In this document: positions 18,781 to 54,293 of the stretch, piece by piece | Layout of the letters: each line of letters opens with the position of its first letter | Position numbering within the stretch: the first letter of the stretch is position 1 | Source: Chthoniobacterales bacterium | Lineage (GTDB): Bacteria > Verrucomicrobiota > Verrucomicrobiia > Chthoniobacterales > Chthoniobacteraceae | NCBI GenBank assembly: GCA_038227825.1 | Contig: JBBRPQ010000018.1 | Coordinates: 13,675-77,674 of the forward strand | Direction of reading: 5' to 3' | Length of the DNA: 64,000 nt | The notes under the pieces: model-generated | Told to the model about the DNA's origin: nothing | Databases searched by the model: none | Seen by the model: the letters and a program-made list of their open reading frames with translations, nothing else | Made by a program: the position numbers and the translations under genes

Positions 18781-18887
18781 CGGCTTACGGTTTCGGACGA
18801 AAGCACAGTTTTCCGCTTCGCTGCCGGCCCTCGCCGGGGTTGCCGGAAGGTGAACGAAATTCAAATCAACCAACTCCAAATACGACC

Positions 18888-19289
18888 ATGGCAGACACTA
18901 CGAACAACCAGAAAAATCTCCTGAGCAGCGATGTCGAAATCAAAGGCTCAATCAAGTTTCAGACCGAACTCACGGTGGACGGGAAGATCGAGGGTGAGAT
19001 CACTTCGCCGGGCGTGCTGACGGTGGGCGAGAATTCGGAAATCAAGGGTGAAATCAAGACGAAGTCTGTGACCGTCTTCGGCAAGGTGCATGGGAACATC
19101 ACGGTGGATGAGCGCTGTGAACTGAAGGGTCGCGCGGTGCTGTATGGCGATCTGAAGGCGACGCGGCTTGTGATCGAGGAAGGTGCGACTTTTGTCGGCA
19201 AGTCCGAGGTGACGCCGAACAAGGTGCAGATGAAGCAGCCGGAGATCGTGCGCGCGCCCGAGGGTCGCGAAGGACGTGGCGGACGGTAG
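18888..19289 (+). CDS. bactofilin (DUF583/CcmA family)
   Basis: The characteristic repeat pattern is present: VEIKGSIKFQTELTVDGKIEGEITSPGVLTVGENSEIKGEIKTKSVTVFGKVHGNITV..LVIEEGATFVGK. Confidence 0.85.
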   Translation: MADTTNNQKNLLSSDVEIKGSIKFQTELTVDGKIEGEITSPGVLTVGENSEIKGEIKTKSVTVFGKVHGNITVDERCELKGRAVLYGDLKATRLVIEEGATFVGKSEVTPNKVQMKQPEIVRAPEGREGRGGR

Positions 19290-36218: not shown

Positions 36219-36272
36219 TACCGCTGCCCGAAGTGAAATGCAAACACGCAGGCGTGCCGTATTCCGCGCGCA

Positions 36273-37601: not shown

Positions 37602-37628
37602 TCGGTGAATTTCGCGGCACGCCCTCAA

Positions 37629-38912
37629 TCAAAGCGCGACAGTTCGTCCGGGCACGGCGATGGGGTAATTGCCATCCGCATCCGGCTTCACGGGCGGGTC
37701 CATGTCCCACGACACTTTCTCCGGCATGAGCTGGAGCTTGGAATTGATAGCCTCATCCCACTCGATGAGCTTGCCAGAGTAAGTCGCCATGCGGCCCATG
37801 ATCGCCGTCATCGTGCTCATCGCGGCGATCTCGAGTTCGTTGTATGGCGTGTCGTTTCGGATCGCCTCGATGAGAGGGTAATGTTCGAGCTGGTGCCCGT
37901 CTTCGCCGGTCTTGAGCCGCATCTCCCAAGGATTCGCGCCAGTGATGCGGAACAGCTTTGATCCCACATTCAGATCCGCGCGCCCCTTCGTGCCGACGAC
38001 ATGCTCGCTCACCTCCTGATGCGTGCCTGCCTGGCCCTGCCGGCATTGGCTGAAAAGTTTCGTCCCATCCGCATACTCATACTCGACGAAGTGATGATCG
38101 AAAATCTGCCCGTGCAGAGCCTTGTCATTGCGCACCTGCCGCCCGCCCATGCCCTGCGCGCGCACGGGATGACCGCCCTTGATCCAGTTCATGATGTCAA
38201 TGTTATGGATGTGCTGATCCACGATGAAGTCGCCGGAGATCCACGTGAAATAGTACCAGTTGCGAAGCTGGTAGTGCAGCTCGTCCTCGTCTGCCAGCCT
38301 CGGCTGGCCCGCGCGCGCATTGCCGAGCCAGTAGCAAGTCATCGAAGTGATGTCGCCGATCGCCCCTTCATGGATGCGCTTCACCGTCTCGATATAGGAA
38401 GGCTGATGATGCCGCTGCAGCCCGACGCCGATCTTCAGATTCTTCTTCTTCGCCTCCGCTGCCGCTGCGAACACGACGCGAACTCCCGGAGCATCCACCG
38501 CGAGCGGTTTCTCGACGAAGACATGCTTCCCCTGCTTCACCGCCTCCGCGAGATGATACGGATGAAATCCCTGCGGCGTCCCGATGATCACAAGGTCCGC
38601 AAGCGTGATGGCCTCCCTGTAAGCCTCGAAGCCGATGAACTGATTCGCCGTCGAGACGTCCACCTGCCCAGGATGTTTTTTCTTCAGCACGCCGAGACTC
38701 TTGTCGAGTTGCTCCTGCGAAATGTCGGCCATCGCGATCAGCCGCAGCCCCTTGTCCGTCGTGAGATTCTGGCTCGCCGCGCCAGTGCCGCGCCCGCCGC
38801 AACCGATCATCGCGACTTTGATCGTGTCGGAATATTTTGCGGCAAGCGAATGCGTCGCCACGGCGATTGTTGCAGCCGTCGTGGTGGTGATGAATCGGCG
38901 TCGTGTAGTCAT
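37629..38912 (-). CDS. Gfo/Idh/MocA oxidoreductase with Tat signal
   Basis: MTTRRRFITTTTAATIAVA, then IGCGGRGTGAA and EKPLA. Confidence 0.85.
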   Translation of the reverse strand: MTTRRRFITTTTAATIAVATHSLAAKYSDTIKVAMIGCGGRGTGAASQNLTTDKGLRLIAMADISQEQLDKSLGVLKKKHPGQVDVSTANQFIGFEAYREAITLADLVIIGTPQGFHPYHLAEAVKQGKHVFVEKPLAVDAPGVRVVFAAAAEAKKKNLKIGVGLQRHHQPSYIETVKRIHEGAIGDITSMTCYWLGNARAGQPRLADEDELHYQLRNWYYFTWISGDFIVDQHIHNIDIMNWIKGGHPVRAQGMGGRQVRNDKALHGQIFDHHFVEYEYADGTKLFSQCRQGQAGTHQEVSEHVVGTKGRADLNVGSKLFRITGANPWEMRLKTGEDGHQLEHYPLIEAIRNDTPYNELEIAAMSTMTAIMGRMATYSGKLIEWDEAINSKLQLMPEKVSWDMDPPVKPDADGNYPIAVPGRTVAL

Positions 38913-38930
38913 GGTGGGATTTGGTTGGCG

Positions 38931-39977
38931 TTAAAACTTCAGCATCTCGGCGACAGGCAGTGGACGCTTTTGCCGGATGGATTCCTCGGCGACTAGGCAC
39001 AGGCCCGCGGACCACAGGCCGTCGAATCCGCTCGCGGCGGGCGGCGTGCCGTGGCGCACCATCTCGACACAGCGAGCGATTTCCGCATGCAGTTCGAAGA
39101 CCTCGCCGCTCTGCTTTTCGAGCTTCACTTCCTCCAGCTTCTCGCCGTCGAAGACTTTCAGAAATGCCACCGGCTCCAGCGTGCGATCCAGCGCACCGCT
39201 CCAGCCCGCCCACAGCGCGCCCTTCGTGCCGCTCACCTTCACGGTCTGGTGATGCTCGAATGCCGCGAGCGTCTGCGAGACGACGGCGTAGCTGCCGTTC
39301 GCGCAGCGGAACATCGCGCTGAAATTGTCAAACAGCGCGGGCCGCTGCGGGTCGCGCGAATTTGCGTACGCGTGAAGCTCGATGGGATCGCCGCTGCCTT
39401 CGAGATACCACCGCGCGAGATCGAAAAAATGAATAGGCTCCTCCAGCACCCAGCTCCCGACGCGCGTCGGATCATAGCGCCATCCGTCAGCACCGAGGCG
39501 GTAGGGTTTCCGCGAAAGCTCCACGAGCACATACTGCGGCTCGCCGATTACGCCGCGCTCGATGATTTTTTTGATCTCACCCCATTGCGACGAGAGCCGG
39601 AACTCGTGTCCGACCGCAAGATGCACGCCGTGATTCCGCGCTGCGGCGACAATGGCCTTGCAGTCCTCCAGCGTGGTCGCCATCGGCTTTTCGAGCAGGA
39701 CGTGCTTGCCGCGTTCCATCGCTGCGAGCGCGAGCGCGCGGTGCGTGTGGCTCGGCGTGGCGATGTCGATGATGTCGAAGTCTGCCTCCGCGACCATTGC
39801 CAGGCTGTCGGAGAAAATCTTTGCACCCGGATGCAGCCTGCACGCTTCCTCGCGCGAAGCCTCGGACGGCGCGGCAATGGCGACGAGCTGCGCGTCAGGA
39901 TTTCCAGCGATGGACTGCGCGTGAAATTTCCCCCAAGCGCCGAAACCGGCGAGGGCGAAGCGGACGGGCTGTGTCAT
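38931..39977 (-). CDS. Gfo/Idh/MocA oxidoreductase (cytoplasmic)
   Basis: FALAGFGAWGKFHA and LLEKPMA. Confidence 0.85.
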   Translation of the reverse strand: MTQPVRFALAGFGAWGKFHAQSIAGNPDAQLVAIAAPSEASREEACRLHPGAKIFSDSLAMVAEADFDIIDIATPSHTHRALALAAMERGKHVLLEKPMATTLEDCKAIVAAARNHGVHLAVGHEFRLSSQWGEIKKIIERGVIGEPQYVLVELSRKPYRLGADGWRYDPTRVGSWVLEEPIHFFDLARWYLEGSGDPIELHAYANSRDPQRPALFDNFSAMFRCANGSYAVVSQTLAAFEHHQTVKVSGTKGALWAGWSGALDRTLEPVAFLKVFDGEKLEEVKLEKQSGEVFELHAEIARCVEMVRHGTPPAASGFDGLWSAGLCLVAEESIRQKRPLPVAEMLKF

Positions 39978-39978
39978 G

Positions 39979-41124
39979 TCAGTGGCGAGGTGCGGTGGTG
40001 AGCGGCGTGACGGGCTCCTTCACGAGCCGTCCCTGCAACTCGTTCAACCGGCAGGCTGGCAGTTTTGGCAGGACGTATTTTGCAAACAGTTCGCACTCGT
40101 CGAGGTGCGGATAGCCGCTGATGATGAACGCGCGGATGCCCATGTCCATGTAGCGGTTCAGCTTTGCGAGCACCTGATCGGGGTCGCCCACGATCGCGCT
40201 CGCGCAGCCGCTGCGCGCGAGGCCGATGCCACTCCACAGATGCGGCTCGATGTAGAGATCCTTGCTCTGCGCGCGCAGTTCGTCCTGCCGCTTCACGCCC
40301 GCGCTTTGGCTGTCCTGCGAACGCGCTTTGATCTCCGCGCCCTTCGTGGCGTCGAGTTTTGAAATGAGACGTTCTGCAGCGGCGCGTGCCTCAGATTCGG
40401 TCTCGCGCACGATGACGTGTGTGCGGAAGCCGAAATCAATCATGCGCCCGTGCGCGGCGGCTTTTTCCGACATCACGCGCATCGTCTCCGCGATGCGATC
40501 CTCCGTCTCCGGCCACATGAGGAACACATCGCAATGCTTCGCACATAGCTCCTGCGCAGCAGGCGAGATGCCTCCGAAATACATCAGCGGCCCGCCATTC
40601 TGCTGGTAGCACTTTGCCGGCTCCGTCGTCGGCAGGGTGATGTTGTAAAACTCGCCCTTCCACTCGAACGCGCCATCCGTGCGCCACATGCCTTGCAGGA
40701 TTTGGATGATCTCGCTGGCCCGCGCGTAGCGCACCTCGTTGCTCTCCTTTGCGCCCGGCATGTCGGACGAGATGATGTTGATGCACAGCCGACCCTTCGC
40801 GATGTGGTCCACCGTGGCGAGCGCGCGGGCGAGCATCGGCGGCCAGACCTCACCCATGCGCAGCGCGATGAGTTGATTGATCTGCCGCGTCTGCGGTGCC
40901 ATCGCCGCGGCAAAGGCGAGCGCGTCCTGCCCCGCAATCCAGCCGGAGGGCAGCAGGATGTTTTGAAAACCGTGAGCGTCCGCGCAGCGCATGATCTCGC
41001 CGCAGTGTGCGTAGCTGCTGCGCAGCGCGCCATCAGGCACGCCGAGGAATTCGTAGTCGTCGCCGCACAGCGCGGAAAACCATGCGGTCTCGCAGCGGCG
41101 TTCGGGGGTGCGGATGGGGAGCAT
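39979..41124 (-). CDS. luciferase-like (LLM class) flavin-dependent monooxygenase, SsuD-like
   Basis: Start at MLPIRT. The sequence shows a TIM-barrel LLM pattern ([33 protein letters not shown]). Confidence 0.75.
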
Positions 41125-41205
41125 CGGGAATGACGAATGACGGATGACCAATGGCGAGGCAAGCAGCACATCCGCGGAACGCACCTTGTAGGCGATGGTC
41201 TGCTC

Positions 41206-41296
41206 GTAGCGTTGCTCTCCAGAGCTGCGCAGATCGCGTCGGGGAGTGATGAAGTGCCCACGCCTGCAAGCGCGCAGCTCTGGAAAGCTACGCTAC
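41206..41296. repeat. 91-nt palindromic element, same family as 54294..54363
   Basis: Arms are GTAGCGTTGCTCTCCAGAGCTGCGC and GCGCAGCTCTGGAAAGCTACGCTAC (2 mismatches). The right arm closely resembles the right arm at 54338..54363. Confidence 0.6.
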
Positions 41297-41366
41297 GGCT
41301 GCCGCCGCGTTCCCGCTTGCACCAACCGTCGCGTGCTCGCATCTTCGCCGCCCTTTTTCAAAACCT

Positions 41367-43133
41367 ATGAGCCAGACCAAAGAAATCCCGTTGATGGAAA
41401 AAATCGTGAGCCTGTGCAAGCGGCGCGGCTTCATTTTCCAAAGTTCGGAAATCTACGGCGGCATCAACGGCTTCTGGGACTACGGCCCGCTCGGCGCGGA
41501 GCTGAAGCGCAACCTGCGCGACACCTGGTGGCGCGCGATGACGCGCGACCGCGAGGACGTGGTGGGCCTCGACGCGACCATCATCATGCACCCGGCGATT
41601 TGGAAGGCGTCGGGGCATGTGGACACGTTTGCGGACCTCATGCGCGAGTGCTCGATCACGAACAAGCGCGTGCGCGCGGATCACGTCGAACCGCAGAGCG
41701 GCACGGTGATGCGCTTCACGGCGGTCGAGTCGCCATCGGGCTGGCGGATGGATCGCCATTTCACGGTGCTCATGAAAAAGACCGAGCACATCGAAAGCTT
41801 CCGCAAGCGCGTGCGCGCGATGCTCGCGCAGGGTGCGGGTGCGGCTGCTGGAAAGCCCGAGGAGCTCGTCCTGCACGGCGAGGTGAAGATTGATGTGCTG
41901 GAGAACACGGTGGATTTTCACCCCGAGACCGGCGGGATGCTCACCGAGGCGCGGCCTTTCAATCTCATGCTGAAGACCTACGTCGGCCCGACGGCGACGG
42001 AGGATGACATCGCGTATCTGCGGCCCGAGACAGCGCAGGCGATCTTTGCGCAGTTCAAGAACACCGTGGACAGCACGCGCGTGAAGGTGCCCTTCGGCAT
42101 CTGCCAAATCGGCAAGGCGTTTCGCAACGAGGTCACGCCGCGCAATTTCACGTTCCGCTCCCGCGAGTTCGAGCAGATGGAGCTGGAGTTTTTCATCCCG
42201 CCGGACGAGGCGGTGCGGATCGTCCACCTCAGCGTCGCGCCGTGGAGCGAAGGCGCGGACCTTTCCTCGCCGCAGCCAAATTGGGGCTGGGAAATGTGGC
42301 ATCGCTACTGGGTCGCGCAGCGCACGGCTTACTATGCGGGCATCGGGCTCGGTTCGGACGTGCTCGACTATCACTGGCAGACAAAAGCGGACCTAGCGCA
42401 TTACGCCCGCGCGTGCGTGGACATCCTGTTCAAGTTTCCGTTTGGCACCGAGGAGCTCGAGGGCATCGCCGCGCGCGGTGACTTCGACCTCACGCAGCAC
42501 CAGAAGCACAGCGGCAAACCGCTGGAGATTTTCGACGAGGAACTCCGCGCCGCCGCCGCGAAGCTCAGCGACATGGAGCGTCACGACTTCATCGGTCGGG
42601 TGGAATTGGAGTGGGCCGACCGCGGCAAGTCGCGCGAAGAGGCCAAGGCATTCTGCGACCGGCTGCTGAAAGGCTTCTACGTCCCGCACGTCATCGAGCC
42701 GTCCGCCGGACTCGACCGCCTCGCGCTCGCTGTGCTCGCGCTCGCCTACACCGAAGTCGAGAAGACGGACGCGAAGGGCAACAAGGAGACAGTCACGGTG
42801 ATGCGGTTCCACCCGCGCATCGCGCCGAAGAAAGTCGCCGTGTTTCCGCTGCTGAAAAACAAGCCCGAACTCGTGGCGAAGGCGCGGGAGATTTACGAGA
42901 CGCTGAAGAAGCACATGGCCGCCGACTACGACGAGGGCGGTAGCATCGGCAAACGCTACGCGCGGCAGGACGAGGCGGGCACACCGTTCTGCGTCACCGT
43001 GGATTTCGACACGCTCGGCGAAAAAGGCCCGGAACTGAAGGATACCGTGACGCTCCGCCACCGCGACGACGGCTCGCAAGAGCGCGTGCCGATCAGCGAA
43101 CTGCTCGGACGCCTGCTGCCGCTGGTGAGCTAG
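41367..43133 (+). CDS. glyQS: glycine--tRNA ligase (class II, homodimeric type)
   Basis: LCKRRGFIFQSSEIYGGINGFWDYGPLG, FRNEVTPRNFTFRSREFEQMELEFF, and PSAGLDRL. Confidence 0.9.
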   Translation: MSQTKEIPLMEKIVSLCKRRGFIFQSSEIYGGINGFWDYGPLGAELKRNLRDTWWRAMTRDREDVVGLDATIIMHPAIWKASGHVDTFADLMRECSITNKRVRADHVEPQSGTVMRFTAVESPSGWRMDRHFTVLMKKTEHIESFRKRVRAMLAQGAGAAAGKPEELVLHGEVKIDVLENTVDFHPETGGMLTEARPFNLMLKTYVGPTATEDDIAYLRPETAQAIFAQFKNTVDSTRVKVPFGICQIGKAFRNEVTPRNFTFRSREFEQMELEFFIPPDEAVRIVHLSVAPWSEGADLSSPQPNWGWEMWHRYWVAQRTAYYAGIGLGSDVLDYHWQTKADLAHYARACVDILFKFPFGTEELEGIAARGDFDLTQHQKHSGKPLEIFDEELRAAAAKLSDMERHDFIGRVELEWADRGKSREEAKAFCDRLLKGFYVPHVIEPSAGLDRLALAVLALAYTEVEKTDAKGNKETVTVMRFHPRIAPKKVAVFPLLKNKPELVAKAREIYETLKKHMAADYDEGGSIGKRYARQDEAGTPFCVTVDFDTLGEKGPELKDTVTLRHRDDGSQERVPISELLGRLLPLVS

Positions 43134-43197
43134 TCCCTTCGATTGCCCGTCTTTTCAGCACGGCATTCACCGGTCCTCCATGGCGGGTCAGGTGACG

Positions 43198-43335
43198 ATT
43201 TCTGCGAAAACTTCGCGAACGTTGCCGCCTCAATGTGCGCAGGGATGTGCCGCATGAGGTTCAGGTAGTTAGGCATATCCATTTCCAAAGGCTGCTGCAG
43301 CGCGAGCCGGGTTCGTTGAGTGATGGCTGCATTTC
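43198..43335 (-). pseudogene. tgt: orphan 3-prime fragment of tgt
   Basis: The minus-strand translation PNYLNLMRHIPAHIEAATFAKFSQK parallels the intact Tgt C-terminus HFYLNLMRRIRTHIEAGTFAEFRKKF. Only the last roughly 25-45 codons are present. It lies convergent with glyQS. Confidence 0.65.
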
Positions 43336-43414
43336 TCAAGTGCCATGTGATTTCTGTGAGGTCACATCAAGGGGCATCAGGCACGCTTTGTGCATAAGCG
43401 GTTCAGCCAACCTG

Positions 43415-44998
43415 ATGAAAAACCACATTTCTCCCGCCTTTGTGGCACAGCGCGCCGGGAGTTTTTCTGAGCATGGCGGCCGCTCCGTTTCAGGCATTCG
43501 TGCCGAAACACGAAGCGATTCGGCTTTTCGGGTTTTGGAGCGAAATGCTGAGCCCGTCTCGCGGCAGGCAGGCTCTGTGGATATTCCTCTTTGCGTGGAT
43601 TGCGATGGAACCTTGATCGCTGGCGATCTGTTGATCGAGTCAGTGTTGCGGGCCGTTTTTGCGAAACCTTCGATCTTGTTTTGCCTTCCCGCTTGGCTGT
43701 TGGCTGGCAAGGCCGAGTTCAAGCGGAAGGTCGCCGGATTGACGGAATTCGATCCCGGGGCGCTTCCATATCGGGCGGAGGTTTTGGAGTTCCTGCGTGA
43801 GGAGTTCCAGCGTGGCCGGAGGCTATTTCTCGTGACAGCAGCCGAAAAGACCCTCGCTGAGAAGGTGGCCGATCATCTGGGGATATTCGAAGGTGTTCTG
43901 GCCAGTGATGGGGAATGTAATCTCAAAGGCAGTGCAAAGGCAGATCGCTTGGCGCAAATGTTCGGTCGTGAGGGATTTGATTATGCAGGAGATGCAGATG
44001 CTGATCTCCCGGTTTGGGAGGCTTCCAGGAATGCAATCACAGTTGCGAGTTCCACGGCGACACTTCGAAAGCTAGAAGCCACGAAGACCCCCATTTTGAC
44101 ATTTCCAAGACCGGAGACGTCTCTCAGCACTTGGCTGAGGCTCATGCGAATCCATCAGTGGGCTAAGAACCTCCTGATTTTTGTTCCCCTCATCACATCG
44201 CATCGTTTCAACGAGTTTGCGACTCTAGCGAACACGCTCTTGGGCTTTCTGGCATTTGGATTGATGGGATCGAGCACCTACATCCTGAACGATCTGGCGG
44301 ATATCCAAAATGACAGAAATCATCCCTCTAAAAGGAACCGGCCGATTGCTTCTGGCGAGATTGCGCCCAGGGATTCGATCGTATTTGCATTGATGCTTTC
44401 CGGGGGAGCCGCGGCGCTATGCCTTGGTCTTTCCCTGTCGTGCGTTTCGATTCTGGCATGCTACACCCTGCTTACCGTCACCTATACCTTAGCCGTGAAG
44501 CAGAAGCTCATGATGGATGTGGTCATGCTGGCTGGTTTGTATGCTATCCGCATTATTTTTGGTCACGCGTTGGGTGGCATTCCATTCTCAGTTTGGCTTT
44601 CAGCATTCGCGATCTTCACTCTATTCAGCCTTGCCCTGGCGAAAAGATATACGGAATTGATCAATCCGGCGGTGCGTAGAGCGGGTGCAACCAAAGGGAG
44701 AGACTATAAACCTGGAGATGAGGGTCCAGTGTCTCAACTTGGAACGGCGAGCGGAATGGTCGGTATCATGGTGTTGGTTCTTTATGTGAACAGTCCGGAA
44801 GTGCAGAAGCTTTACAATGAGCCGCGTCTGCTCCTGTTGTTGTGCCCTCTTTTTCTATATTGGATCGGAAGAATATGGATGCTGACCCACCGAGGTGAAT
44901 TGCACGATGACCCAGTGGTTTTTGCCCTTAGGGACCGTGTGAGTTACCATGTTGGTGGCATGGCTGTTGCAGTGCTCATTCTGGCCTCATGGTTATGA
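43415..44998 (+). CDS. HAD-phosphatase / UbiA-family polyprenyl-phosphate phosphoribosyltransferase-like fusion
   Basis: HAD motif I is DCDGT and motif IV is GDADAD. The UbiA motif reads NDLADIQNDRNHPSKRNRPIASG, and multiple TM helices follow. The start is uncertain (ATG 43415; the HAD domain begins around 43585). Confidence 0.75.
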   Translation: MKNHISPAFVAQRAGSFSEHGGRSVSGIRAETRSDSAFRVLERNAEPVSRQAGSVDIPLCVDCDGTLIAGDLLIESVLRAVFAKPSILFCLPAWLLAGKAEFKRKVAGLTEFDPGALPYRAEVLEFLREEFQRGRRLFLVTAAEKTLAEKVADHLGIFEGVLASDGECNLKGSAKADRLAQMFGREGFDYAGDADADLPVWEASRNAITVASSTATLRKLEATKTPILTFPRPETSLSTWLRLMRIHQWAKNLLIFVPLITSHRFNEFATLANTLLGFLAFGLMGSSTYILNDLADIQNDRNHPSKRNRPIASGEIAPRDSIVFALMLSGGAAALCLGLSLSCVSILACYTLLTVTYTLAVKQKLMMDVVMLAGLYAIRIIFGHALGGIPFSVWLSAFAIFTLFSLALAKRYTELINPAVRRAGATKGRDYKPGDEGPVSQLGTASGMVGIMVLVLYVNSPEVQKLYNEPRLLLLLCPLFLYWIGRIWMLTHRGELHDDPVVFALRDRVSYHVGGMAVAVLILASWL

Positions 44999-46881
44999 AA
45001 CGATTTCGCAATTGGATTGCGAAAAAATGCGAAAACCGAGTAGCCGACATCATTTCGGCACTCGTCTATGCAAGGATCCAGGGCCAGGCGGCTCAGTTTA
45101 CTGATGGACTTGCCAATCAAGTGGCAAAATTAGTGGCCGCGCAGCAGGCTCGGATGCCGGATATCCTTAGGTTGCCTATCCGCATTCTTACAGTGCTATT
45201 CGATGCCAGTGGTTTGGGTTTCTTTCTCCGAGTATTTCGCCGCCAGAATAGCGGCCAACGTTCCACGCAGGCTGCTCTTTGGCGGAATGCCATCTTCGGC
45301 CCTTGCCGAGACCTGATGCGCTTTTATGACAGCCTGATCACTCTGGCGTCGCTCGACGGAGAGACGCCCCAAGCCATCAAGCCGAATCGAGCGTACAGCA
45401 GCGCCCCGGCGATTGTCAGCAGCTCGGATTGCGAAGTCGCCGTGATCGGGTCCGGTCCTGGGGGTGCCATTTCGGGAGTGATCTGGGCAGAGGCGGGTGC
45501 GAATACCTTGATGCTTGAAGAAGGCGCAAACCTGCCGCTGGAATCTTGCAAGCCGTTTTCGATCGCTGAAATGGTGCAGAAGTACCGTCGAGGTGGCCTA
45601 ACAGCGACATTGGGAAAAAGCAAAATCGCCTATGTGGAGGCTGCGTGTGTTGGGGGAGGCAGTGAGGTGAACAGCGGGCTCTACCATCGGACTCCAAATG
45701 ACGTCCTCACACATTGGGCGGACCGCTACCGACTTGAATCTGCAGCGCTTAGCGACATGGAGCCGCATTTTGAAGCATGTGAACGCGATTTTTCGGTTTC
45801 GTATCTTCAAGGCGCGGCGCCCGGAGCATCGCTGAAATTGAAACAGGGTGCTGATGCGCTGGGATGGCGTTGTCAGGAGGTCCCGCGGTGGTTTCGCTAC
45901 AGCAAAACTGGTCCCAACGGAACGGACATTGGCAACCCTGTGTCTGGTGAGCGCCAGTCGATGACCCGTGCGATGATACCGAGATTTGTTGCATCTGGTG
46001 GCAAATTGATCAGCGAGGCCAGAGTGCTCAAGATTCACCGTGATCGGACAAGGTGGTTGCTTGATGTGAGAAGTTCCAGCGGCCAGATCGGGCGGATTTC
46101 TGCGGAGAGGGTGATCCTTTCTGCGGGGGCGATCGGGACGCCCGCGCTTCTGCAGAGATCTTCGCTTGGGAAAAATGTCGGTCGCCGGCTGCAGATGCAT
46201 CCGACTATCAAGGTTGTGGCGCTGTTCGACGAGGAAGTGAACAGCGCGGAAATGGGTGTCCCGGTTCACCAAGTGAAGGAATTCGCGCCTGGATTCAGCT
46301 TCGGATGCTCCATTAGCTCGAAACCCTACCTCGCCCTAGCGATGCTCGATCACCCGGACCATGCGCACCTCGTGGAAACAAATTGGAAACGCATGGCGAT
46401 CTATTACGCAATGATAGTGCCGGAAGGTCACGGTTCGGTGAGAGCCTTACCGGGCTTTAATGATCCGCTCGTCACATATGCTCTTTCAAACGGTGACATG
46501 AGGGCCCTCTCTCAAGCGCTCCGAAAGCTCTGCGAATTGCTCTTCGCTGCGGGTGCGCGTTCCCTCTTTCCCAGCATCACGGGCCAACCACATTTGAGGG
46601 ACCAGGATGATCTTGGCACGCTGCCTGCGTTGATTCCGCGCAGCCGAGCCAACCTAATGACCATACACCTCTTTTCCAGTTGCCCGATGGGCGAAGACCA
46701 ATCCATGTGCGTGGGCGATTCCTATGGGCGGGTTCATGGCCACGAAAGGCTCATTATCTCCGATGCAAGCCTCCTGCCGAGCGCCCCGGGAGTGAACCCG
46801 CAGGGCTCCGTGATGGCTTTTGCGCGGCGCAATGCCTTGGCGCTTGCAGGTGCGTCAAGTGCGGAAATGAGCCACCGCTGA
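44989..46881 (+). CDS. GMC-family FAD oxidoreductase with roughly 130-aa N-terminal extension
   Basis: VAVIGSGPGGAISG. The C-terminal GMC motif reads VHGHERLIISDASLLPSAPGVNPQGSVMAFA. An alternative ATG at 44995 would give an ATGA overlap. Confidence 0.8.
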   Translation: MVMKRFRNWIAKKCENRVADIISALVYARIQGQAAQFTDGLANQVAKLVAAQQARMPDILRLPIRILTVLFDASGLGFFLRVFRRQNSGQRSTQAALWRNAIFGPCRDLMRFYDSLITLASLDGETPQAIKPNRAYSSAPAIVSSSDCEVAVIGSGPGGAISGVIWAEAGANTLMLEEGANLPLESCKPFSIAEMVQKYRRGGLTATLGKSKIAYVEAACVGGGSEVNSGLYHRTPNDVLTHWADRYRLESAALSDMEPHFEACERDFSVSYLQGAAPGASLKLKQGADALGWRCQEVPRWFRYSKTGPNGTDIGNPVSGERQSMTRAMIPRFVASGGKLISEARVLKIHRDRTRWLLDVRSSSGQIGRISAERVILSAGAIGTPALLQRSSLGKNVGRRLQMHPTIKVVALFDEEVNSAEMGVPVHQVKEFAPGFSFGCSISSKPYLALAMLDHPDHAHLVETNWKRMAIYYAMIVPEGHGSVRALPGFNDPLVTYALSNGDMRALSQALRKLCELLFAAGARSLFPSITGQPHLRDQDDLGTLPALIPRSRANLMTIHLFSSCPMGEDQSMCVGDSYGRVHGHERLIISDASLLPSAPGVNPQGSVMAFARRNALALAGASSAEMSHR

Positions 46882-46882
46882 A

Positions 46883-47956
46883 ATGGCACGAATCTTTGTT
46901 ACCGGGGCAGCCGGGTGGTTGGGGTTGAACCTGATTGAAGCGTTAGCCGGCGCTCACAATGCCGATTCCGGATTGGAATCGGAGGCGTTGACGCTCTTGC
47001 TCCATTCCAGCGACTCAGAGCGTGAGGTTCGCACCAAGATGCCTCATGCGCGCATCGTTCGGGGAGACTTAACTTATCCGGGCTCGTTGAAGGACCTTTT
47101 TGCTGATGGCCGTGACGGCATCCTATTTCACATGGCCGGGATCATTCATCCGAGCCGTGTGCGCGAATTCTTCGAAATCAACCGCGACGGCACCCGGCAT
47201 CTTCTCGAAGCTGCAAAGGAGGCGGGAGTTCGCAGGGCTGTCGTCGTTTCTTCAAACTCCCCCTGCGGTTGCAATCCTCACCCGGATCATCGTTTTGACG
47301 AAGATTCATCATACCGACCGTATATGAATTACGGGAAGTCTAAAATGGAAATGGAGCAGCTTGTGCAGGAGTTTTACGAAAGGGGGGATATGGAAACGGT
47401 GATTGTCCGTGCTCCATGGTTTTACGGGCCTCACCAGCCACCGAGGCAGAAGCTCTTCTTCGAGATGATCCGCGATGGCAAAATGCCACTGGTAGGCGAC
47501 GGCCAAAATCTTCGTTCAATGGCATATACGGGAAACCTTGCGCAGGGCCTCCTTTTGGCTGCAACCAAAGCCAAAGCTGCGGGGCAAACCTACTGGATAG
47601 CCGACGAGCGTCCCTATTCAATGAACGAGATCATCGAGACTATCGAGCGTCTTCTGGAGTCTGAATTCCAGCAGAGCTGTGCTCATCGGCGTATCAAGCT
47701 GCCAAATGTGGTCAGCGACATCGCATATCTTGCTGACTTATGCATGCAGTCCCTTGGGTTGTATCATCAAAAGATCCACGTCCTTTCCGAAATGAACAAA
47801 TCGATCGCCTGCTCAATCGATAAGGCGAAACGGGAGTTGAATTACCTTCCCGTCGTCTCGCTGGAGGAAGGAATGAGACGGAGCTTGGCGGAAGTCTTTT
47901 CCACAACCAGCAACAAGAAAAAAAACTTTGAGTATGCTGGGCGCGGCACCTGTTAA
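46883..47956 (+). CDS. extended SDR, NAD-dependent epimerase/dehydratase family
   Basis: IFVTGAAGWLGLNL and YGKSK. The gene starts 1 nt after the GMC stop. Confidence 0.85.
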   Translation: MARIFVTGAAGWLGLNLIEALAGAHNADSGLESEALTLLLHSSDSEREVRTKMPHARIVRGDLTYPGSLKDLFADGRDGILFHMAGIIHPSRVREFFEINRDGTRHLLEAAKEAGVRRAVVVSSNSPCGCNPHPDHRFDEDSSYRPYMNYGKSKMEMEQLVQEFYERGDMETVIVRAPWFYGPHQPPRQKLFFEMIRDGKMPLVGDGQNLRSMAYTGNLAQGLLLAATKAKAAGQTYWIADERPYSMNEIIETIERLLESEFQQSCAHRRIKLPNVVSDIAYLADLCMQSLGLYHQKIHVLSEMNKSIACSIDKAKRELNYLPVVSLEEGMRRSLAEVFSTTSNKKKNFEYAGRGTC

Positions 47957-49628
47957 TTCCCATACGGACGGTGTTGCCGCAGTTGGCAGCTCCGCAAATG
48001 GTGCCAGCGCGCAATGGTGGCTCTCTGCCTGGTTTGCGATTCCGTTTCTGATCGTGGTGGTGCTGTTGTCGCGACTAACATCGATTTCGATTAATTCAGA
48101 GCTGAACCCGGACGAGAGTCAGATGCTGGCGCAGGCCATGCGAATCGGAATCGATCCGGTGCCCTGGAGGGGAATGGATGGCACGACAAGCGGACCCGTT
48201 AACTCCTGGGCGCTGTTTGTTCTCCATAAGCTGGGTATGCCACTTAGGCATTCGCATGCGCACGCTGTCGCAGCAGCAATTCTCGCCTCGTTGAGCGTCT
48301 TGACTTATGCTACGCTCCGCCAAGTTGGGTCAAAGTCGCATGCATTTATTGGAGCGGGGCTGACCGCATTCGTCATCACCCTGGCCCAGGACGACAATTT
48401 CACCCATTTTACAAGCGAGCTCATTTCTGCTCAGCTCATGGCGATGGCACTGTTTTGTTGCGCGCTGCGTTTCCGCTTTCCGATGCAAAGCATTGCGTTG
48501 GACTGTGCATCAGGATTGATGCTGGGAATCATCCCGTGGGCAAAGCTCCAGTCGATATTGGGAGCGGGAGCGCTCGCCATGTGGCTTGGTTGGCAGATAT
48601 GGCGTGGCTCCTTCTTCGGTGAGAATTTCCCGAATAAAAGATTCAAGCACCTGATTGCTTTTGGCGCTGCGTTTCTGCTGCCTGCGATACTGATGATGGG
48701 AGTCATCATCAATTTCGGAGCGGTAGAAGACTTTTGGGGCTCCTACATTCAAACAAGTATGGCCTACTCCTCCGCTGATCGGAACGGGAGTTCTTTTTTA
48801 CAGAGGGCTGTCCTTCTTTTTACCAAGGAGCACGCCGGTTACTTGAGTCAATCTGTTGGTCTTTTTGCGCTGGCATGGGGTGTGTGTAGATTCCAAGGTT
48901 GGAAAACCGCCATCCTTCCCGCCAAGAAACTCATCCCTCTATTAGCCGGCATGGCGATCATCACCGCCGTAGCAGTATTAAAACCTCCTTACCTCTTTTC
49001 GCACTATGGGATCCTCCTGTTTCAGCCTTTGACATTGTTGGCCGGCTGCATTCTTGCAGCTTGGAAGCCAAATTCCCTTTCGCTTCAAGGTCAACGGTTT
49101 CCTGCAATCTTGCTGATTCTCTGCTTTGCTGGTGTCCACATAGCAAAGCTATCGCCTCCGATTTTGTATTCACACTACTGGAATCAGGTGCGCCCTGATA
49201 ACAAGGGGGGGGCTTTGCGATTGGTTAGTGATGGGATGGATGCGATAGCGCCTGACATTAAAAGTCTGGTGGTATGGGGCTGGATGCCATCCCTTTATGT
49301 GGAGAAGGGGATAGCGCCAGCGACACGTCATGCAATCTGTCACTTCCTGATCGATCCGGGTCCTGCGCAGGCTAGGCTTCGTGAAGGATTCCTGTCGGAT
49401 ATCCGCCGGGAGAAGCCGGATATGATTGTGGATGTGGTTGCTGGGGGATGTTTTCGTTGGTACTGGGATTGTACGCGCAGGATGGGTTGCTTTCCTGAAC
49501 TGTTGGAATATGTGCAAACCCACTATGTTCTGTCAGCCGAATTGGGAGTGAAGAGTCCTGTGAATCCAGTCCGCTTCTACCTATCCCGCGAATACTTGGC
49601 AGGCCGTGCAAGATTGGAGGCTGAATGA
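47934..49628 (+). CDS. polytopic GT-C-like membrane glycosyltransferase candidate
   Basis: At least 10 hydrophobic helices. The first loop carries an acidic motif LNPDESQMLAQAMR. The C-terminal soluble domain includes VVWGWMPSLYV. It overlaps the previous gene by 23 nt. Confidence 0.6.
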   Translation: MLGAAPVNSHTDGVAAVGSSANGASAQWWLSAWFAIPFLIVVVLLSRLTSISINSELNPDESQMLAQAMRIGIDPVPWRGMDGTTSGPVNSWALFVLHKLGMPLRHSHAHAVAAAILASLSVLTYATLRQVGSKSHAFIGAGLTAFVITLAQDDNFTHFTSELISAQLMAMALFCCALRFRFPMQSIALDCASGLMLGIIPWAKLQSILGAGALAMWLGWQIWRGSFFGENFPNKRFKHLIAFGAAFLLPAILMMGVIINFGAVEDFWGSYIQTSMAYSSADRNGSSFLQRAVLLFTKEHAGYLSQSVGLFALAWGVCRFQGWKTAILPAKKLIPLLAGMAIITAVAVLKPPYLFSHYGILLFQPLTLLAGCILAAWKPNSLSLQGQRFPAILLILCFAGVHIAKLSPPILYSHYWNQVRPDNKGGALRLVSDGMDAIAPDIKSLVVWGWMPSLYVEKGIAPATRHAICHFLIDPGPAQARLREGFLSDIRREKPDMIVDVVAGGCFRWYWDCTRRMGCFPELLEYVQTHYVLSAELGVKSPVNPVRFYLSREYLAGRARLEAE

Positions 49629-50653
49629 GGGCGTTGGTCACTGGCGGCTCAGGTTACTTTGGTTCACTTCTGGTGAGGAAAATGCGCGACGAAGGGCATG
49701 AGGTCGCCGTCCTTGATGTGAATGATGCGAGTGACCGTCCTGTGGATGTCATGTTTCACGGAGTGGATATCCGTGACCGTCGTGCGCTGATGGATTGTGT
49801 GCGCGGTTACACGCATGTTTTTCACAATGTGGCCCAAGTGCCCCTTGCGAAGGATAAGCGGCTTTTCCGCTCTGTGAATGTCGATGGCACTGCAAACATT
49901 CTAGAAGCGAGCCTCGCTGCGGGCGTGAGGAAATTCGTTTATACTTCATCCAGCGCGGTTTTTGGAGTGCCGCTGTCAAATCCTGTCTTGGAGGATACAC
50001 CGCCCGAGCCAGGTGAGGCGTATGGTGCCGCAAAACTCGAAGGTGAGAGGAAGTGCCATGAAGTGTCTGCCCGTGGTCTTGATGTTTCCATCATCCGGCC
50101 CCGTACGATTCTTGGGCACGGCCGGTTGGGAATATTCCAGATTCTTTTCGAATGGATACGGAAGGGCCTAAATGTGCCGGTTTTGGGAGATGGGAATAAC
50201 GTCTATCAATTTGTCCATTCAGATGATTTGGCGACAGCATGCATGCTCGCGGCGGCTCGTCCAGGACCCGCAACCTACAATATCGGCGCTGCCGAGTTCG
50301 GAACCATGAGGGAGGCCCTGGAAGGCCTATGTGCTCATGCCCAGACCGGTTCAAAAGTCCGTTCTGTGCCTATGGGACTTGCGGTCGCTGGTATGAAGCT
50401 GACATCAGTTCTCGGTTTGTCCCCGCTTGGGGCCTACCACGCGTTGATGTATGGACGCTCCATGTATTTCGATATCGGCAAGGCTCAGCGCGAATTGGCA
50501 TTCACGCCGCGATTCACGAACGCAGAGATGCTGAGGCAAAGCTATGATTGGTACCTCATGAACGCATCCGGCGCGGCGGCTGCGTGTGGTCAAAGTCACC
50601 ATCGTTCGCCAGTTAAGCAGGGAGTGTTGTCACTGTTCGCTCGATTTTTATAG
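49625..50653 (+). CDS. extended SDR, NAD-dependent epimerase/dehydratase family
   Basis: ALVTGGSGYFGSLL and YGAAK. ATGA overlap with the GT-C-like gene. Confidence 0.85.
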   Translation: MRALVTGGSGYFGSLLVRKMRDEGHEVAVLDVNDASDRPVDVMFHGVDIRDRRALMDCVRGYTHVFHNVAQVPLAKDKRLFRSVNVDGTANILEASLAAGVRKFVYTSSSAVFGVPLSNPVLEDTPPEPGEAYGAAKLEGERKCHEVSARGLDVSIIRPRTILGHGRLGIFQILFEWIRKGLNVPVLGDGNNVYQFVHSDDLATACMLAAARPGPATYNIGAAEFGTMREALEGLCAHAQTGSKVRSVPMGLAVAGMKLTSVLGLSPLGAYHALMYGRSMYFDIGKAQRELAFTPRFTNAEMLRQSYDWYLMNASGAAAACGQSHHRSPVKQGVLSLFARFL

Positions 50654-50773
50654 CTGACGCCAAACAGGCCTTCCGTGCAGGTGAAGGTGGCGGCTTCTGC
50701 TTGTGTTGCGGAGAAATGTTTGATTTTTGGAAGCCGAGTGTTCGCTTGGTGACACGGCTCGCATGATGCGATT

Positions 50774-51892
50774 TTAGTCGTGCGTTTCTTCCGCCTTCCA
50801 CGGCACGTATTCGCCCACGAACTTTTTCCGGAACTCCGCGAATGTCCCGGCCTCGATGTGCGTGCGGATGCGGCGCATGAGATTCAGGTAGAAGTGCAGG
50901 TTGTGCAGCGTGACGAGGCGCAGGCCGAGGATTTCGTTGGCCTTGAGGAGATGGCGCAGGTAGCCGCGGGCGAACTTCCGGCACGCGGGGCATTCGCAGC
51001 CGGATTCGATGGGGCCTTCGTCCATCGTGAACTCGGCGTTTTTCAGATTCAGCGTGCCGCGCTCGGTGAAGGCGGTGCCGTTGCGCGCGATGCGCGTGGG
51101 CAGCACGCAGTCGAATAGGTCCACGCCGCGCGCGACCATTTCCACGAGCTGCGGGGGCGTGCCGAGGCCCATCGCGTAGCGCGGCTTGTCGGCGGGCAGG
51201 AAGGGCTCGGCGGACTCGACGGCCTTCATCATTTCCGGCTCGGGCTCGCCGACACTCACGCCGCCGATGGCGTATCCGTCGAAGCCGATTTGCACGAGCG
51301 CCTCGGCGCTTTCGCGGCGCAGGTCGGCGTAGCTGCTGCCTTGCACGATGCCGAATTTCATCCCCGGCGTCTCGACCTGCTTGCACACGGCGGCCCACTG
51401 GAGCGTGAGCGCGAGCGACTTTGCGGCGTAGTCGCGCTCGCACGGATGCGGCGGGCATTCGTCGAAAAGCATGGCGATGTCGCTGCCGAGCGTGGCCTGG
51501 ATTTCCATCGCCTCGCGCGGACCGAGGAACATCGGCGAGCCGTCGAGGTGATTTTGAAAATGCACGCCCTCGGGGGTGATTTTGCGCAGCTTCGCGAGCG
51601 AGAAGACCTGGAAGCCGCCGCTGTCGGTGAGGATCGGCCGATCCCAGGCCATGAAGCGGTGCAGCCCGCCGAATTTGCGCATCACGTCCATGCCGGGGCG
51701 GACGAAAAGGTGATACGTGTTGCCGAGGATGATCTGCGCGCCGAGCTGCGTGAGTTCGTCCGGCGACACCGCCTTCACCGAGCCCTGCGTGCCGACGGGC
51801 ATGAACTGCGGCGTCTGGATGTCGCCGCGCTTCGTGCGAAGGATTCCGCGGCGGGCTTTGGATGAAGGATCGGTGCCGAGCAGTGTGAACAT
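50774..51892 (-). CDS. tgt: queuine tRNA-ribosyltransferase (tRNA-guanine transglycosylase)
   Basis: Start at MFTLLGTD. Motifs present: [36 protein letters not shown], the Zn site CECPAC, and HNLHFYLNLM. Confidence 0.9.
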   Translation of the reverse strand: MFTLLGTDPSSKARRGILRTKRGDIQTPQFMPVGTQGSVKAVSPDELTQLGAQIILGNTYHLFVRPGMDVMRKFGGLHRFMAWDRPILTDSGGFQVFSLAKLRKITPEGVHFQNHLDGSPMFLGPREAMEIQATLGSDIAMLFDECPPHPCERDYAAKSLALTLQWAAVCKQVETPGMKFGIVQGSSYADLRRESAEALVQIGFDGYAIGGVSVGEPEPEMMKAVESAEPFLPADKPRYAMGLGTPPQLVEMVARGVDLFDCVLPTRIARNGTAFTERGTLNLKNAEFTMDEGPIESGCECPACRKFARGYLRHLLKANEILGLRLVTLHNLHFYLNLMRRIRTHIEAGTFAEFRKKFVGEYVPWKAEETHD

Positions 51893-52152
51893 GGGGCGGA
51901 GACGATAGTCGGCGGCGATGCGGGATGAAGGACGAAAGTCGGATGAAATTTCGCCGTGAACGATGGCCTCTGCAATTTCGGCGGGCTTGGCTCTCCAGAG
52001 GCCGTGCAAAAGTGTGTTTGCTGTGCGATTCGCGCGTCGGGACTGAATTTGGAAGCCATGACACCATGAAATCCGTGCATTTGACTCTTCAGTTCCTGGA
52101 TTCATGGCTTCCAAATTCGATGCTGCGGATTTTTTGTACAGTCTCTCAGCGA

Positions 52153-52593
52153 TCAGGGACGGCGTCCTTCGTTCACCTCGTAGTAGTCGAAGAACGTCAC
52201 AAGGTCGGTGCGGTGCGCGAGACCGCTGGCGGCTTTGTAGGCTTCGAGTTCCTGCGTGGAGCCGTCGTCCTCGTCGCGCCAGCCGCGCTTTTCCATGAAC
52301 TTGTTCCAGACGAGCAGTTGCTCTTCCGTGGGGCGCGTGCCGCACGAGTGGCACCATGCGAGCACTTCGTCATCGTGGCCGCTTGCGAGCGTGCGTTCGC
52401 GCAGTGCGGGATACGTGACACCGAGCAGGCGGCAGCAGCGGGCATCGAAACCGTCGCCGAGATTCGCGTGGAAATCCGAGCGCAACTGGCCGGCGGCGTG
52501 GAGGCGTATTTTATCAAGCATCCTCGCGAAATAGACGAGGCCGCCGGTGCGATCATAGGCGCTGCGGGGGACGCGGTCGGCGGGCGGGTTCAT
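52153..52593 (-). CDS. DUF5069-like protein
   Basis: Start at MNPPADR. VPRSAYDRTGGLVYFARMLDKIRLHAAG matches my memory of the DUF5069 N-terminal pattern. Confidence 0.6.
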   Translation of the reverse strand: MNPPADRVPRSAYDRTGGLVYFARMLDKIRLHAAGQLRSDFHANLGDGFDARCCRLLGVTYPALRERTLASGHDDEVLAWCHSCGTRPTEEQLLVWNKFMEKRGWRDEDDGSTQELEAYKAASGLAHRTDLVTFFDYYEVNEGRRP

Positions 52594-52603
52594 CGTGGGA
52601 TGA

Positions 52604-54216
<1,613 letters not shown>

Positions 54217-54293
54217 GAGCGGCGAGGAAGAAGGAAACGGCGGCGGAAATCCAGCACCGTCCTCGCAGCCGCTGCGCGGATGCCGGGGTGCCC

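Follow-up and report, generated by a model that had tools for sequence, protein, structure and literature searches.

A predicted polyprenyl-phosphate pentofuranose operon in a Chthoniobacterales genome, with a GMC flavoprotein and two extended short-chain dehydrogenases in the position of DprE1 and DprE2

Introduction

A 64-kb stretch of DNA from a Chthoniobacterales bacterium (GenBank assembly GCA_038227825.1, contig JBBRPQ010000018.1; the whole stretch is called the window below) carries at positions 43415-50653 of the plus strand a module of five closely packed genes, g1 to g5. They encode a HAD-UbiA fusion protein, a flavoprotein of the GMC family, a first extended short-chain dehydrogenase/reductase (SDR), a polytopic membrane protein and a second extended SDR. 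An earlier reading of this locus (the sequence-only reading) had proposed that the module supplies and transfers a lipid-linked pentose by the logic of the mycobacterial arabinose route, with unrelated proteins at several steps. The locus therefore raises the question of whether a gene set without homology to DprE1 and DprE2 stands in their place, and which pentose would result. Our answer is that the module is probably a horizontally acquired operon predicted to build a polyprenyl-phosphate-linked pentofuranose donor from phosphoribosyl pyrophosphate (PRPP), to change its stereochemistry and to transfer the sugar to an extracytoplasmic acceptor.

DprE1 and DprE2 are, to our knowledge, the sole established route from lipid-linked ribose to lipid-linked arabinose, and DprE1 ranks among the foremost drug targets in tuberculosis. 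A non-homologous gene set in their slot may mean that the chemistry has two evolutionary origins or, in view of the second SDR, that a new lipid-linked pentose is made, which if true would be a new building block for surface glycans in soil and plant-associated bacteria. Gram-negative relatives of the mycobacterial pathway include noeCHOP of Azorhizobium and the P. aeruginosa PA7 pilin D-arabinofuranose system with its transferase TfpW. Pentofuranose systems combine a synthase with a flippase and a GT-C transferase, and epimerases are optional (Kelly et al., PNAS 2024, PMC11127046).

The HAD-UbiA fusion synthase

The first gene (g1, 43415-44998, plus strand) encodes two Pfam domains, HAD (PF12710) at residues ~58-215 (43586-44059) and UbiA (PF01040) at residues ~234-527 (44114-44995). 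Its product matched NF006088 (PRK08238), a 482-position NCBIfam model of the HAD-UbiA fusion, with 602.1 bits against a cutoff of 351, and did so end to end, residues 53-526 aligning with profile positions 8-481. The second-best models were three for decaprenyl-phosphate phosphoribosyltransferase (DPPRS), at 141, 135 and 100 bits; those for quinone, heme-o, chlorophyll and archaeal-lipid UbiA enzymes scored at most 48 bits. The UbiA domain thus groups with the polyprenyl-phosphate phosphoribosyltransferases and not with the quinone, heme or chlorophyll prenyltransferases; the latter grouping would have spoken against a pentose donor.

The closest solved relative of g1 is M. tuberculosis Rv3806c (8j8j, E 1.3e-22), and the Asp-rich motif NDLADIQNDRNHPSKRNRPIASG at 44288-44356 aligns with NDVRDVEADREHPTKRFRPIAAG of that enzyme, the form common to both being NDxxDxxxDRxHPxKRxRPIAxG. 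In C. youngae ORF15, which has the same architecture of a HAD phosphoribose phosphatase (PRP) and a UbiA polyprenyl-phosphate 5-phosphoribosyltransferase (PPPRS), PRPP is converted to polyprenyl-phosphate-ribofuranose and the HAD domain takes off the 5-phosphate; D18 is the phosphatase nucleophile, and N247, D248, D251 and D255 are required for activity (PMC11127046). ORF15 D18 corresponds to g1 D62, within catalytic motif I (DCDGT, 43598-43612), and the four UbiA residues correspond to N292, D293, D296 and D300. All of these g1 residues, together with D64, G65, T66, T141, K175 and D197 of the HAD domain, were invariant in four aligned homologues of 44-48% identity. By strong homology, then, we assign g1 as a PRP-PPPRS fusion of the ORF15 type with predicted PRPP-dependent synthase activity. 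The fused phosphatase is therefore not novel, the same architecture having been biochemically characterised in 2024 in ORF15 (PMC11127046).

Homologues of g1 start ~10 residues ahead of PLCVDxDGT, and the first ~50 residues read from ATG 43415 have no counterpart in them; the start codon is uncertain and may be ATG 43415 or one nearer 43577. We rejected an extension of the reading frame to GTG 43235 as spurious, as it overlaps the remnant of a tgt fragment described below. On the 85,422-nt NCBI contig g1 is called as a protein of 284 aa, by length the UbiA domain alone from ~M244, and the full 527-aa product is encoded on a Logan contig. Either the public annotation omits the fused HAD domain or the assemblies differ.

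A conserved donor cassette in the DprE1/DprE2 slot

To place the module among related loci, HAD-UbiA genes were scanned in one genome per species, which returned at least 588 species, and neighbourhoods were analysed in the best 80 loci. An FAD_binding_4 gene (~440 aa, DprE1-like) was present in 28 of these, mostly directly downstream of the HAD-UbiA gene, and an adh_short gene (~250 aa, DprE2-like) in 21. A GMC gene with two extended SDR genes was found in four by clustering of open reading frames (ORFs), and tblastn added a fifth, truncated example (L010). The DprE1/DprE2-like set occurred together with the GMC gene and both SDR genes, here SDRa (the g3 type) and SDRb (the g5 type), in none of the 80. 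In the examined loci the slot after HAD-UbiA holds either the DprE1/DprE2-like set or GMC, SDRa and SDRb, and the two are mutually exclusive.

The scan from the GMC side, in metagenomes, gave at least 519 loci, and neighbourhoods were again analysed in the best 80. Where enough flank was available, HAD-UbiA lay immediately upstream of the GMC gene in 34 of 48 loci (71%); SDRa followed the GMC gene in 30/33 (91%) and SDRb in 28/33 (85%), the SDRa orthologues being 52-64% identical to g3. Neither DprE1/2-like genes nor g4 relatives occurred in any of the best 80 GMC-side loci. These counts show that the GMC and SDR genes are co-conserved with HAD-UbiA, a second point on which the proposal could have failed. 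The HAD-UbiA proteins follow the same division: for those of GMC-type loci the nearest neighbour was of the same type in 50/50, and 42/50 fell in one split of 98% purity. The conserved unit is a four-gene donor cassette of HAD-UbiA, GMC, SDRa and SDRb, and the transferase is exchangeable. This gene set recurs in dozens of independent loci, which puts the arrangement far beyond chance. The module is thus no one-off of odd parts but one instance of a cassette widespread in the metagenome loci and present on rhizobial symbiosis plasmids.

The exchange of transferases is seen in the 55 GMC-type loci with extra flank, in 34 of which a polytopic ORF of 430 aa or more lies close by. BLAST sorts these ORFs into ~24 clusters, and g4 is joined only by a gene from Opitutus. 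The Opitutus metagenome-assembled genome (MAG) holds the g4-like gene, HAD-UbiA, GMC, SDRa and SDRb in a different order, with the g4-type gene abutting the cassette. A single conserved transferase for the cassette was considered and rejected: profile comparisons of the g4 family with the 658-aa protein of S. fredii NGR234 and with the 608-aa and 503-aa proteins of loci L008 and L039 were not significant. An SMR transporter gene lies inside the cassette in loci L008, L145, L151 and L164 and in the rhizobial loci.

Among the polytopic partners of the GMC-type cassette, the most frequent is a different, unannotated protein of 520-570 aa, found in L062 (4197-5765) and in ten other loci, among them L098, L100, L101, L108 and L114. 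In L062 its gene is divergent and upstream of HAD-UbiA. This protein is likely a candidate family for the cognate transferase.

Two variations on the slot were observed. Loci from MAGs of Candidatus Peribacteria carry SDRa and SDRb orthologues (39-43% identity) beside HAD-UbiA (L038, 5015-7081; L076, 4634-5674), and no GMC gene was found within these loci (21 kb and 7 kb, respectively); they may represent a flavoprotein-independent version in bacteria of the Candidate Phyla Radiation (CPR). Some loci of the DprE1/DprE2 type carry an extra extended SDR: L018 (10582-14434, Luteibacter sp. OK325), where it directly follows the DprE2-like gene, L011 and L071. Multi-step tailoring of the lipid-linked pentose may thus occur in the classical type as well.

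The GMC flavoprotein

The second gene (g2, 44989-46881, plus strand) encodes a GMC-family FAD oxidoreductase, with Pfam matches to GMC_oxred_N (107.6 bits, cutoff 23) and GMC_oxred_C (65.5 bits, cutoff 24.6). The N-terminal extension noticed earlier is real and somewhat longer than the ~130 residues first given, covering residues 1-145 (44989-45423). More than 1860 clusters of homologues were found, and the top 120 are ~50% identical to g2 across ~95% of its length, so that the extension is a feature of the family. In the AlphaFold2 (AF2) model (mean predicted local distance difference test score, pLDDT, 85), five helices at residues 2-31, 39-54, 58-79, 88-99 and 104-122 precede the GMC core. 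The FAD-binding GxGxxG motif (G154, G156, G159) and the residues H560 and N603 are invariant in 52 sequences.

A sequence search against the PDB matched g2 only in the C-terminal FAD/active-site segment. By Foldseek the nearest folds to the g2 model, among which no ranking is possible, include the fructose dehydrogenase large subunit, the alpha subunit of the B. cepacia FAD-glucose dehydrogenase, cholesterol oxidase, choline oxidase, bacterial pyranose oxidases and C-glycoside 3-oxidases. Secondary hydroxyls of sugars or sterols are oxidised by many of these enzymes, which fits, without proving it, a predicted oxidation of the lipid-linked ribofuranose at its C2 or C3. With the GMC enzymes acting on sugars and secondary alcohols g2 shares the two-domain fold, the GxGxxG motif and the catalytic His/Asn pair, but identity is just 14-19%, and the conserved five-helix extension of ~145 residues ahead of the g2 core may be a further difference. 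Its genomic context points to a lipid-linked pentofuranose as substrate; we know of no GMC enzyme with such a substrate. No DprE1-like sequence was found in the window, and the fold of g2 is GMC and not the VAO-type FAD_binding_4 fold, so g2 is at most a functional analogue of DprE1 and not a member of its family.

The two extended SDRs

SDRa (g3, 46883-47956, plus strand, 357 aa) and SDRb (g5, 49625-50653, plus strand, 342 aa) match the Epimerase family PF01370 with 108 and 142 bits and are 27% identical to each other. Both retain the GxxGxxG and YxxxK motifs, as GAAGWLG and YGKSK in g3 and GGSGYFG and YGAAK in g5, and neither reached an equivalog cutoff in NCBIfam. No adh_short relative of the DprE2-like neighbour genes was found in the window, g3 and g5 being extended SDRs and not of the classical DprE2 type.

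The closest solved relatives of g5 are GalE-type 4-epimerases, and those of g3 are 4,6-dehydratases and MoeE5. The Asp-Glu pair that we take to be characteristic of 4,6-dehydratases had no counterpart that we could see by eye in the g3 translation. Extended SDRs of other HAD-UbiA loci, considered as epimerases of the C. youngae ORF13 type, are 22-31% identical to SDRa and SDRb, a level from which no role can be assigned; any role given to SDRa or SDRb would be drawn from weak similarity. A single GalE-like SDR, ORF13, converts lipid-linked ribofuranose (Ribf) to xylofuranose (Xylf) (PMC11127046). Inversion at C2 needs one oxidase and one reductase, and the presence of two constant SDRs is therefore the main reason not to accept arabinose outright as the product. 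The constant pair suggests chemistry beyond DprE1/DprE2-style inversion of C2, with an extra step; a further step at C3 (or C4) would lead to lyxo-, xylo- or L-series pentofuranoses.

The GT-C-fold membrane protein

The fourth gene (g4, 47934-49628, plus strand) encodes a polytopic membrane protein that ends in a soluble alpha/beta domain. Its AF2 model, built with 29 homologues, has a pLDDT of 89 and a predicted TM-score (pTM) of 0.90. The top 34 Foldseek matches in the PDB were all GT-C enzymes (E 1e-5 to 5e-2, query TM-scores 0.3-0.5), and unrelated transporters appeared only at probabilities of 0.2 or less. The matches include STT3/PglB/AglB, protein mannosyltransferases (PMTs), DPY19, AftB, EmbA/B/C, AftD, AftA and ALG9, and also PIGU, a GT-C-like subunit of the GPI-transamidase. 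The lack of such a fold would have told against a transferase; with the model and all 34 top matches in agreement, the fold is present.

No match to g4 was found in Pfam or NCBIfam, nor did a profile of its family match any PDB sequence, which makes it a separate sequence family. Among 63 diverse relatives, PMT_2 was matched in three, GT87 in one and PTPS_related in one, families that we take to be of GT-C type, and EpsG in none. The assignment of g4 as a putative GT-C enzyme draws on the fold and on these weak PMT_2 and GT87 matches in relatives. An Asp-Glu pair in the first extracytoplasmic loop, after the first transmembrane helix (TM1), is near-invariant in the 29 relatives and invariant in the 63 (nt 48111-48116; D62/E63 counted from TTG 47928, D60/E61 from ATG 47934). 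The catalytic acid of GT-C enzymes stands at that position after TM1, as noted for ORF12 (PMC11127046). ORF12 (GT-C, GT136) carries the CDD prediction 'EpsG glycosyltransferase family' in Table S1 of Kelly et al., whereas g4 has no Pfam match; by these Pfam and CDD predictions the GT-C protein of the module probably belongs to another sequence family.

A word-indexed search had returned only 29 homologues, which made g4 seem very rare. An exhaustive hidden Markov model (HMM) search overturned this, with 1501 representative clusters at E <=1e-30 and 10161 at E <=1e-3. About a quarter of the listed members are ~850 aa long with an additional C-terminal region, and g4 relatives were found in varied glycan loci (GT2 with a methyltransferase; GLF with an exosortase) that have no UbiA gene.

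Cassettes on rhizobial symbiosis plasmids

By tblastn against plasmids, the donor cassette was found on pNGR234a of S. fredii NGR234 (299625-307690; L172, NGR_RS31055-31085), beside nodS and a few kb from it, and on pRCCGE531b of Rhizobium sp. CCGE531 (451293-459235; L171, CCGE531_RS32020-32050), with a partial cassette on pMLa of M. japonicum (L173). Orthologues are 38% (HAD-UbiA), 38% (GMC), 49% (SDRa) and 56-60% (SDRb) identical to those of the module, and the rhizobial genes bear generic names only. One strand carries SDRb, an SMR transporter, a hypothetical ORF of ~125 aa and a GMC protein of ~500 aa, in that order; divergent on the opposite strand are a 658-aa polytopic hypothetical protein, SDRa and HAD-UbiA.

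These loci resemble the module in holding all four donor genes and an adjoining large polytopic hypothetical protein. They differ in their two divergent operons, the SMR transporter and a GMC protein with a separate ~125-aa ORF in front, and the 658-aa membrane protein shows no sequence relationship to g4. The ~125-aa ORF may, on weak similarity, be an unfused counterpart of the g2 extension (BLASTP E 0.003; hhalign probability 12%, E 0.0025).

The candidate systems in Fig. S12 of Kelly et al. include the CCGE531 accession; according to the figure legend several of the systems have multiple epimerases, and which ones is left unnamed (PMC11127046). The words GMC, oxidoreductase and FAD are absent from that supplement, and a paper describing the GMC-type variant was not found in the literature covered, which leaves out subscription-only papers. 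The position of the cassette beside nod genes in the tractable strain NGR234 may bear on symbiotic surface signals.

Proposed pathway

Homology or fold similarity to characterised enzymes underlies the assignments for synthesis, dephosphorylation and final transfer in the pathway we propose; those for oxidation and reduction are drawn from the equivalent gene slot and from co-conservation. The UbiA domain of g1 would move ribose-5-phosphate from PRPP to polyprenyl (probably undecaprenyl) phosphate at the cytoplasmic face, and the HAD domain would strip the 5-phosphate, as its architecture and its catalytic Asp, both as in C. youngae ORF15, predict. With its FAD, g2 would turn one secondary hydroxyl of the lipid-linked ribofuranose, at C2 or C3, into a ketone; the step is assigned to g2 because it fills the DprE1 operon slot of sister loci and because its fold relatives include enzymes that oxidise sugars and secondary alcohols. 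SDRa and SDRb would reduce and/or epimerise the keto-sugar with NAD(P)H to an epimeric pentofuranose, which would be arabinofuranose if C2 alone is inverted and xylo- or lyxofuranose if C3 is involved too. A flippase from outside the module, such as the SMR-type transporter seen in several related loci, would carry the donor across the membrane, and g4 would then transfer the pentose to its acceptor, which may be a glycan, a lipid or a protein.

The general polyprenyl-phosphate pentofuranose system is already known. What differs here is the replacement of DprE1/DprE2 by a GMC protein and two extended SDRs, together with a GT-C protein of an unannotated family. With the three-component system of Kelly et al., represented in C. 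youngae O1/O2 by ORF15 (PRP-PPPRS), ORF14 (MATE flippase), ORF12 (GT-C, GT136) and ORF13 (SDR epimerase), the module shares a HAD-UbiA first enzyme, predicted lipid-linked Ribf, optional epimerisation, tailoring by extended SDRs and a GT-C transferase; unlike it, the module has a GMC protein with two extended SDRs instead of a lone ORF13-type SDR, and no MATE or SMR flippase. In common with the mycobacterial decaprenyl-phospho-arabinose pathway (Rv3806c, Rv3807c, DprE1, DprE2, Emb/Aft) it has a homologous first step and a GT-C final transferase, and FAD oxidation followed by nicotinamide-dependent reduction is likely the shared tailoring logic. It departs from that pathway in a phosphatase that is a fused HAD domain, unrelated to Rv3807c (PMC11127046), in an oxidase of GMC fold rather than the VAO/FAD_binding_4 fold of DprE1, and in two extended SDRs of ~340-357 aa against a classical adh_short DprE2 of ~250 aa. 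The pathway logic of the sequence-only reading, a lipid-linked pentose donor with its transferase, is therefore supported, and none of the three points examined above (UbiA grouping, co-conservation, GT-C fold) speaks against it; the arabinose-like product is just one option.

Several observations weigh against the proposed pathway. No full HAD-UbiA gene is immediately upstream in 14 of the 48 GMC loci, several of which have a rearranged order. The Peribacteria loci raise the prospect that the SDR chemistry may not strictly require a flavoprotein. The fold matches of g2 all lie between E 1e-23 and 1e-20, a range within which Foldseek does not discriminate GMC subfamilies, and so the regiochemistry of g2 is not readable from its model. 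The module is foreign to its host by codon usage. No flippase of the SMR, GtrA or MATE type was found in the module or the window, and tblastn with the L008 SMR protein gave no match in the 64 kb; the module is too tightly packed to house a flippase gene, and its flanks are glyS and tgt.

Alternative products and alternative functions

As to the product, one reading, held tentatively and just slightly ahead of arabinose, is an epimer other than arabinose: xylofuranose, lyxofuranose (by inversion of C2 and C3) or an L-series sugar by C4 epimerisation of a 3-keto intermediate, with the keto intermediate provided by the flavoprotein and each SDR taking one stereospecific step. Two conserved, divergent SDRs accompanying one oxidase are what such a route would call for. 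ORF13 sets the precedent of one GalE-like SDR turning Ribf into Xylf, SDRb has GalE-type enzymes as its nearest solved relatives, and the fold neighbours of g2 include GMC sugar oxidoreductases that attack glycosides at C2 and/or C3 (8qve, 7dve, 7qva, 7qf8). On the other side, the roles of SDRa and SDRb come from weak similarity, and no cassette carrier has been linked to a glycan of solved structure, a link at which no search was aimed. Lyxofuranose (Lyxf), which would require inversion of both centres, is not known in solved glycans (PMC11127046).

A possibility of nearly the same, rather low likelihood is that the GMC protein and one SDR are functional analogues of DprE1 and DprE2, so that the product would be polyprenyl-phospho-D-arabinofuranose, g4 an arabinofuranosyltransferase and the second SDR accessory or redundant. 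The GMC and SDR genes fill exactly the DprE1/DprE2 slot and exclude those genes from it, and C2 epimerisation in mycobacteria is established to run through oxidation by an FAD enzyme and then reduction with NAD(P)H (PMC11127046). The fold matches of g4 do include the arabinosyltransferases AftB, Emb, AftA and AftD, but oligosaccharyltransferase (OST) and PMT enzymes outrank them. Retention of both SDR paralogues in ~85-90% of loci is hard to square with a dispensable one, and HAD-UbiA loci of the DprE1/E2 type are common across many phyla, so that a second route to the same sugar would need explaining.

We also offer, as an unlikely extension, that the cassette is a flavin-driven, two-reductase route to a pentofuranose new to bacterial glycans, such as D-lyxofuranose via C2 and C3 or an L-series sugar via a 3-keto intermediate, which would be added to surface glycans in Verrucomicrobiota, Acidobacteriota and rhizobia. 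The helical domain of g2 would in that case be a built-in small subunit docking the enzyme to the membrane or to the synthase.

It is improbable that the GMC and SDR proteins tailor an isoprenoid or sterol-like lipid or an acceptor, with g1 a conventional prenyltransferase and a modified membrane lipid as the product. Cholesterol oxidase does occur among the GMC fold matches, both SDRs match the 3-beta-HSD family with weak HpnA and OleD scores, and the NCBI name of the g1 family is just 'UbiA family prenyltransferase'. Yet the UbiA domain has the motif specific to phosphoribosyltransferases and scores three-fold higher with DPPRS models than with any prenyltransferase model; it is fused to a HAD domain of the phosphoribose-phosphatase type, sister loci have DprE1/E2 in this slot, the cassette comes with GT-C partners and SMR flippases, and the HpnA and OleD scores are far under their cutoffs. 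That the module is decaying or silent island cargo without function in this host, as the foreign codon usage, the missing flippase and the 284-aa call of g1 might suggest, is very improbable given five intact ORFs with conserved catalytic residues and start and stop codons that overlap or abut.

Apart from the pathway, the analysis flags two large unannotated protein families, the N-terminally extended GMC proteins (>1860 clusters) and the GT-C-fold g4 family (~1500 clusters, no Pfam model).

Gene layout and genomic setting

Direct reading of the sequence bore out the five plus-strand ORFs and all four junctions between them, and every motif quoted in the sequence-only reading (DCDGT, GDADAD and the Asp-rich motif of g1 and the two motif pairs of the SDRs) was found in the translations. 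At the g1/g2 junction the g2 start ATG 44989 precedes the end of g1, where an ATGA overlap (44995-44998) offers g1 stop and g2 start together. The g2 stop TGA (46879-46881) is parted from ATG 46883 of g3 by one base; g3 and g4 overlap by 23 nt (ATG 47934, in frame with TTG 47928, against TAA 47954-47956); and g4 and g5 share an ATGA at 49625-49628. The five genes are translationally coupled, and the overlapping or abutting codons speak for a single operon. Promoter and terminator scans of 42900-51000 gave signals at shuffle level, which are uninformative, and none internal to the module above shuffle expectation. Rfam and tRNA scans of the whole window gave no match; the island is thus not tRNA-associated, and no riboswitch is evident.

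The lower-GC insertion described earlier is confirmed: GC is 0.541 in the module against 0.620 in the rest of the window, and GC at third codon positions (GC3) is 0.55-0.61, compared with 0.86-0.88 for glyS and tgt on either side. The host had been called PVC-like (Planctomycetes-Verrucomicrobia-Chlamydiae), in line with its placement in Verrucomicrobiota and with the upstream glycine-tRNA ligase (glyS), which falls in a 90% identity cluster with a protein from a Chthoniobacteraceae MAG. The downstream neighbour, tgt (~50774-51892, minus strand), is convergent with the operon. In a close relative, GCA_038239865.1 (L170), glyS and tgt are 91% and 95% identical at the DNA level and the five-gene module is absent, the space between them holding unrelated cargo with a PDDEXK_4 protein.

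The module is bracketed by two copies of the tgt 3' end, 60 nt long, in direct orientation and 80% identical. The right-hand copy (50832-50891, minus strand) is the 3' coding end of tgt itself, and the left-hand copy (43209-43268), at the left island edge, is a degenerate one that is 84% identical to the tgt 3' end of the relative. No integrase was found within the island. The low GC and GC3, the absence from the relative and the bracketing tgt repeat together mark the module as an acquired island at a recombination-prone tgt locus.

On the other side of tgt, a 361-nt direct duplication (94%) of its 5' coding part (51533-51893 and 53857-54217) flanks an insert of ~1.96 kb (51894-53856), the ORFs of which had no convincing match in Pfam. 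Partial tgt copies on both sides suggest repeated Campbell-type insertions at this locus. Elsewhere in the window, a ~5-kb segment (36206-41307) encodes two GFO/IDH/MocA oxidoreductases (37629-38912 and 38931-39977) and a luciferase-like monooxygenase (39979-41184), all on the minus strand. It is missing between conserved blocks in GCA_038239865.1 and is probably one more variable insertion. A second GC dip at 17001-19000 (0.544-0.553 against ~0.62) may be a further foreign segment.

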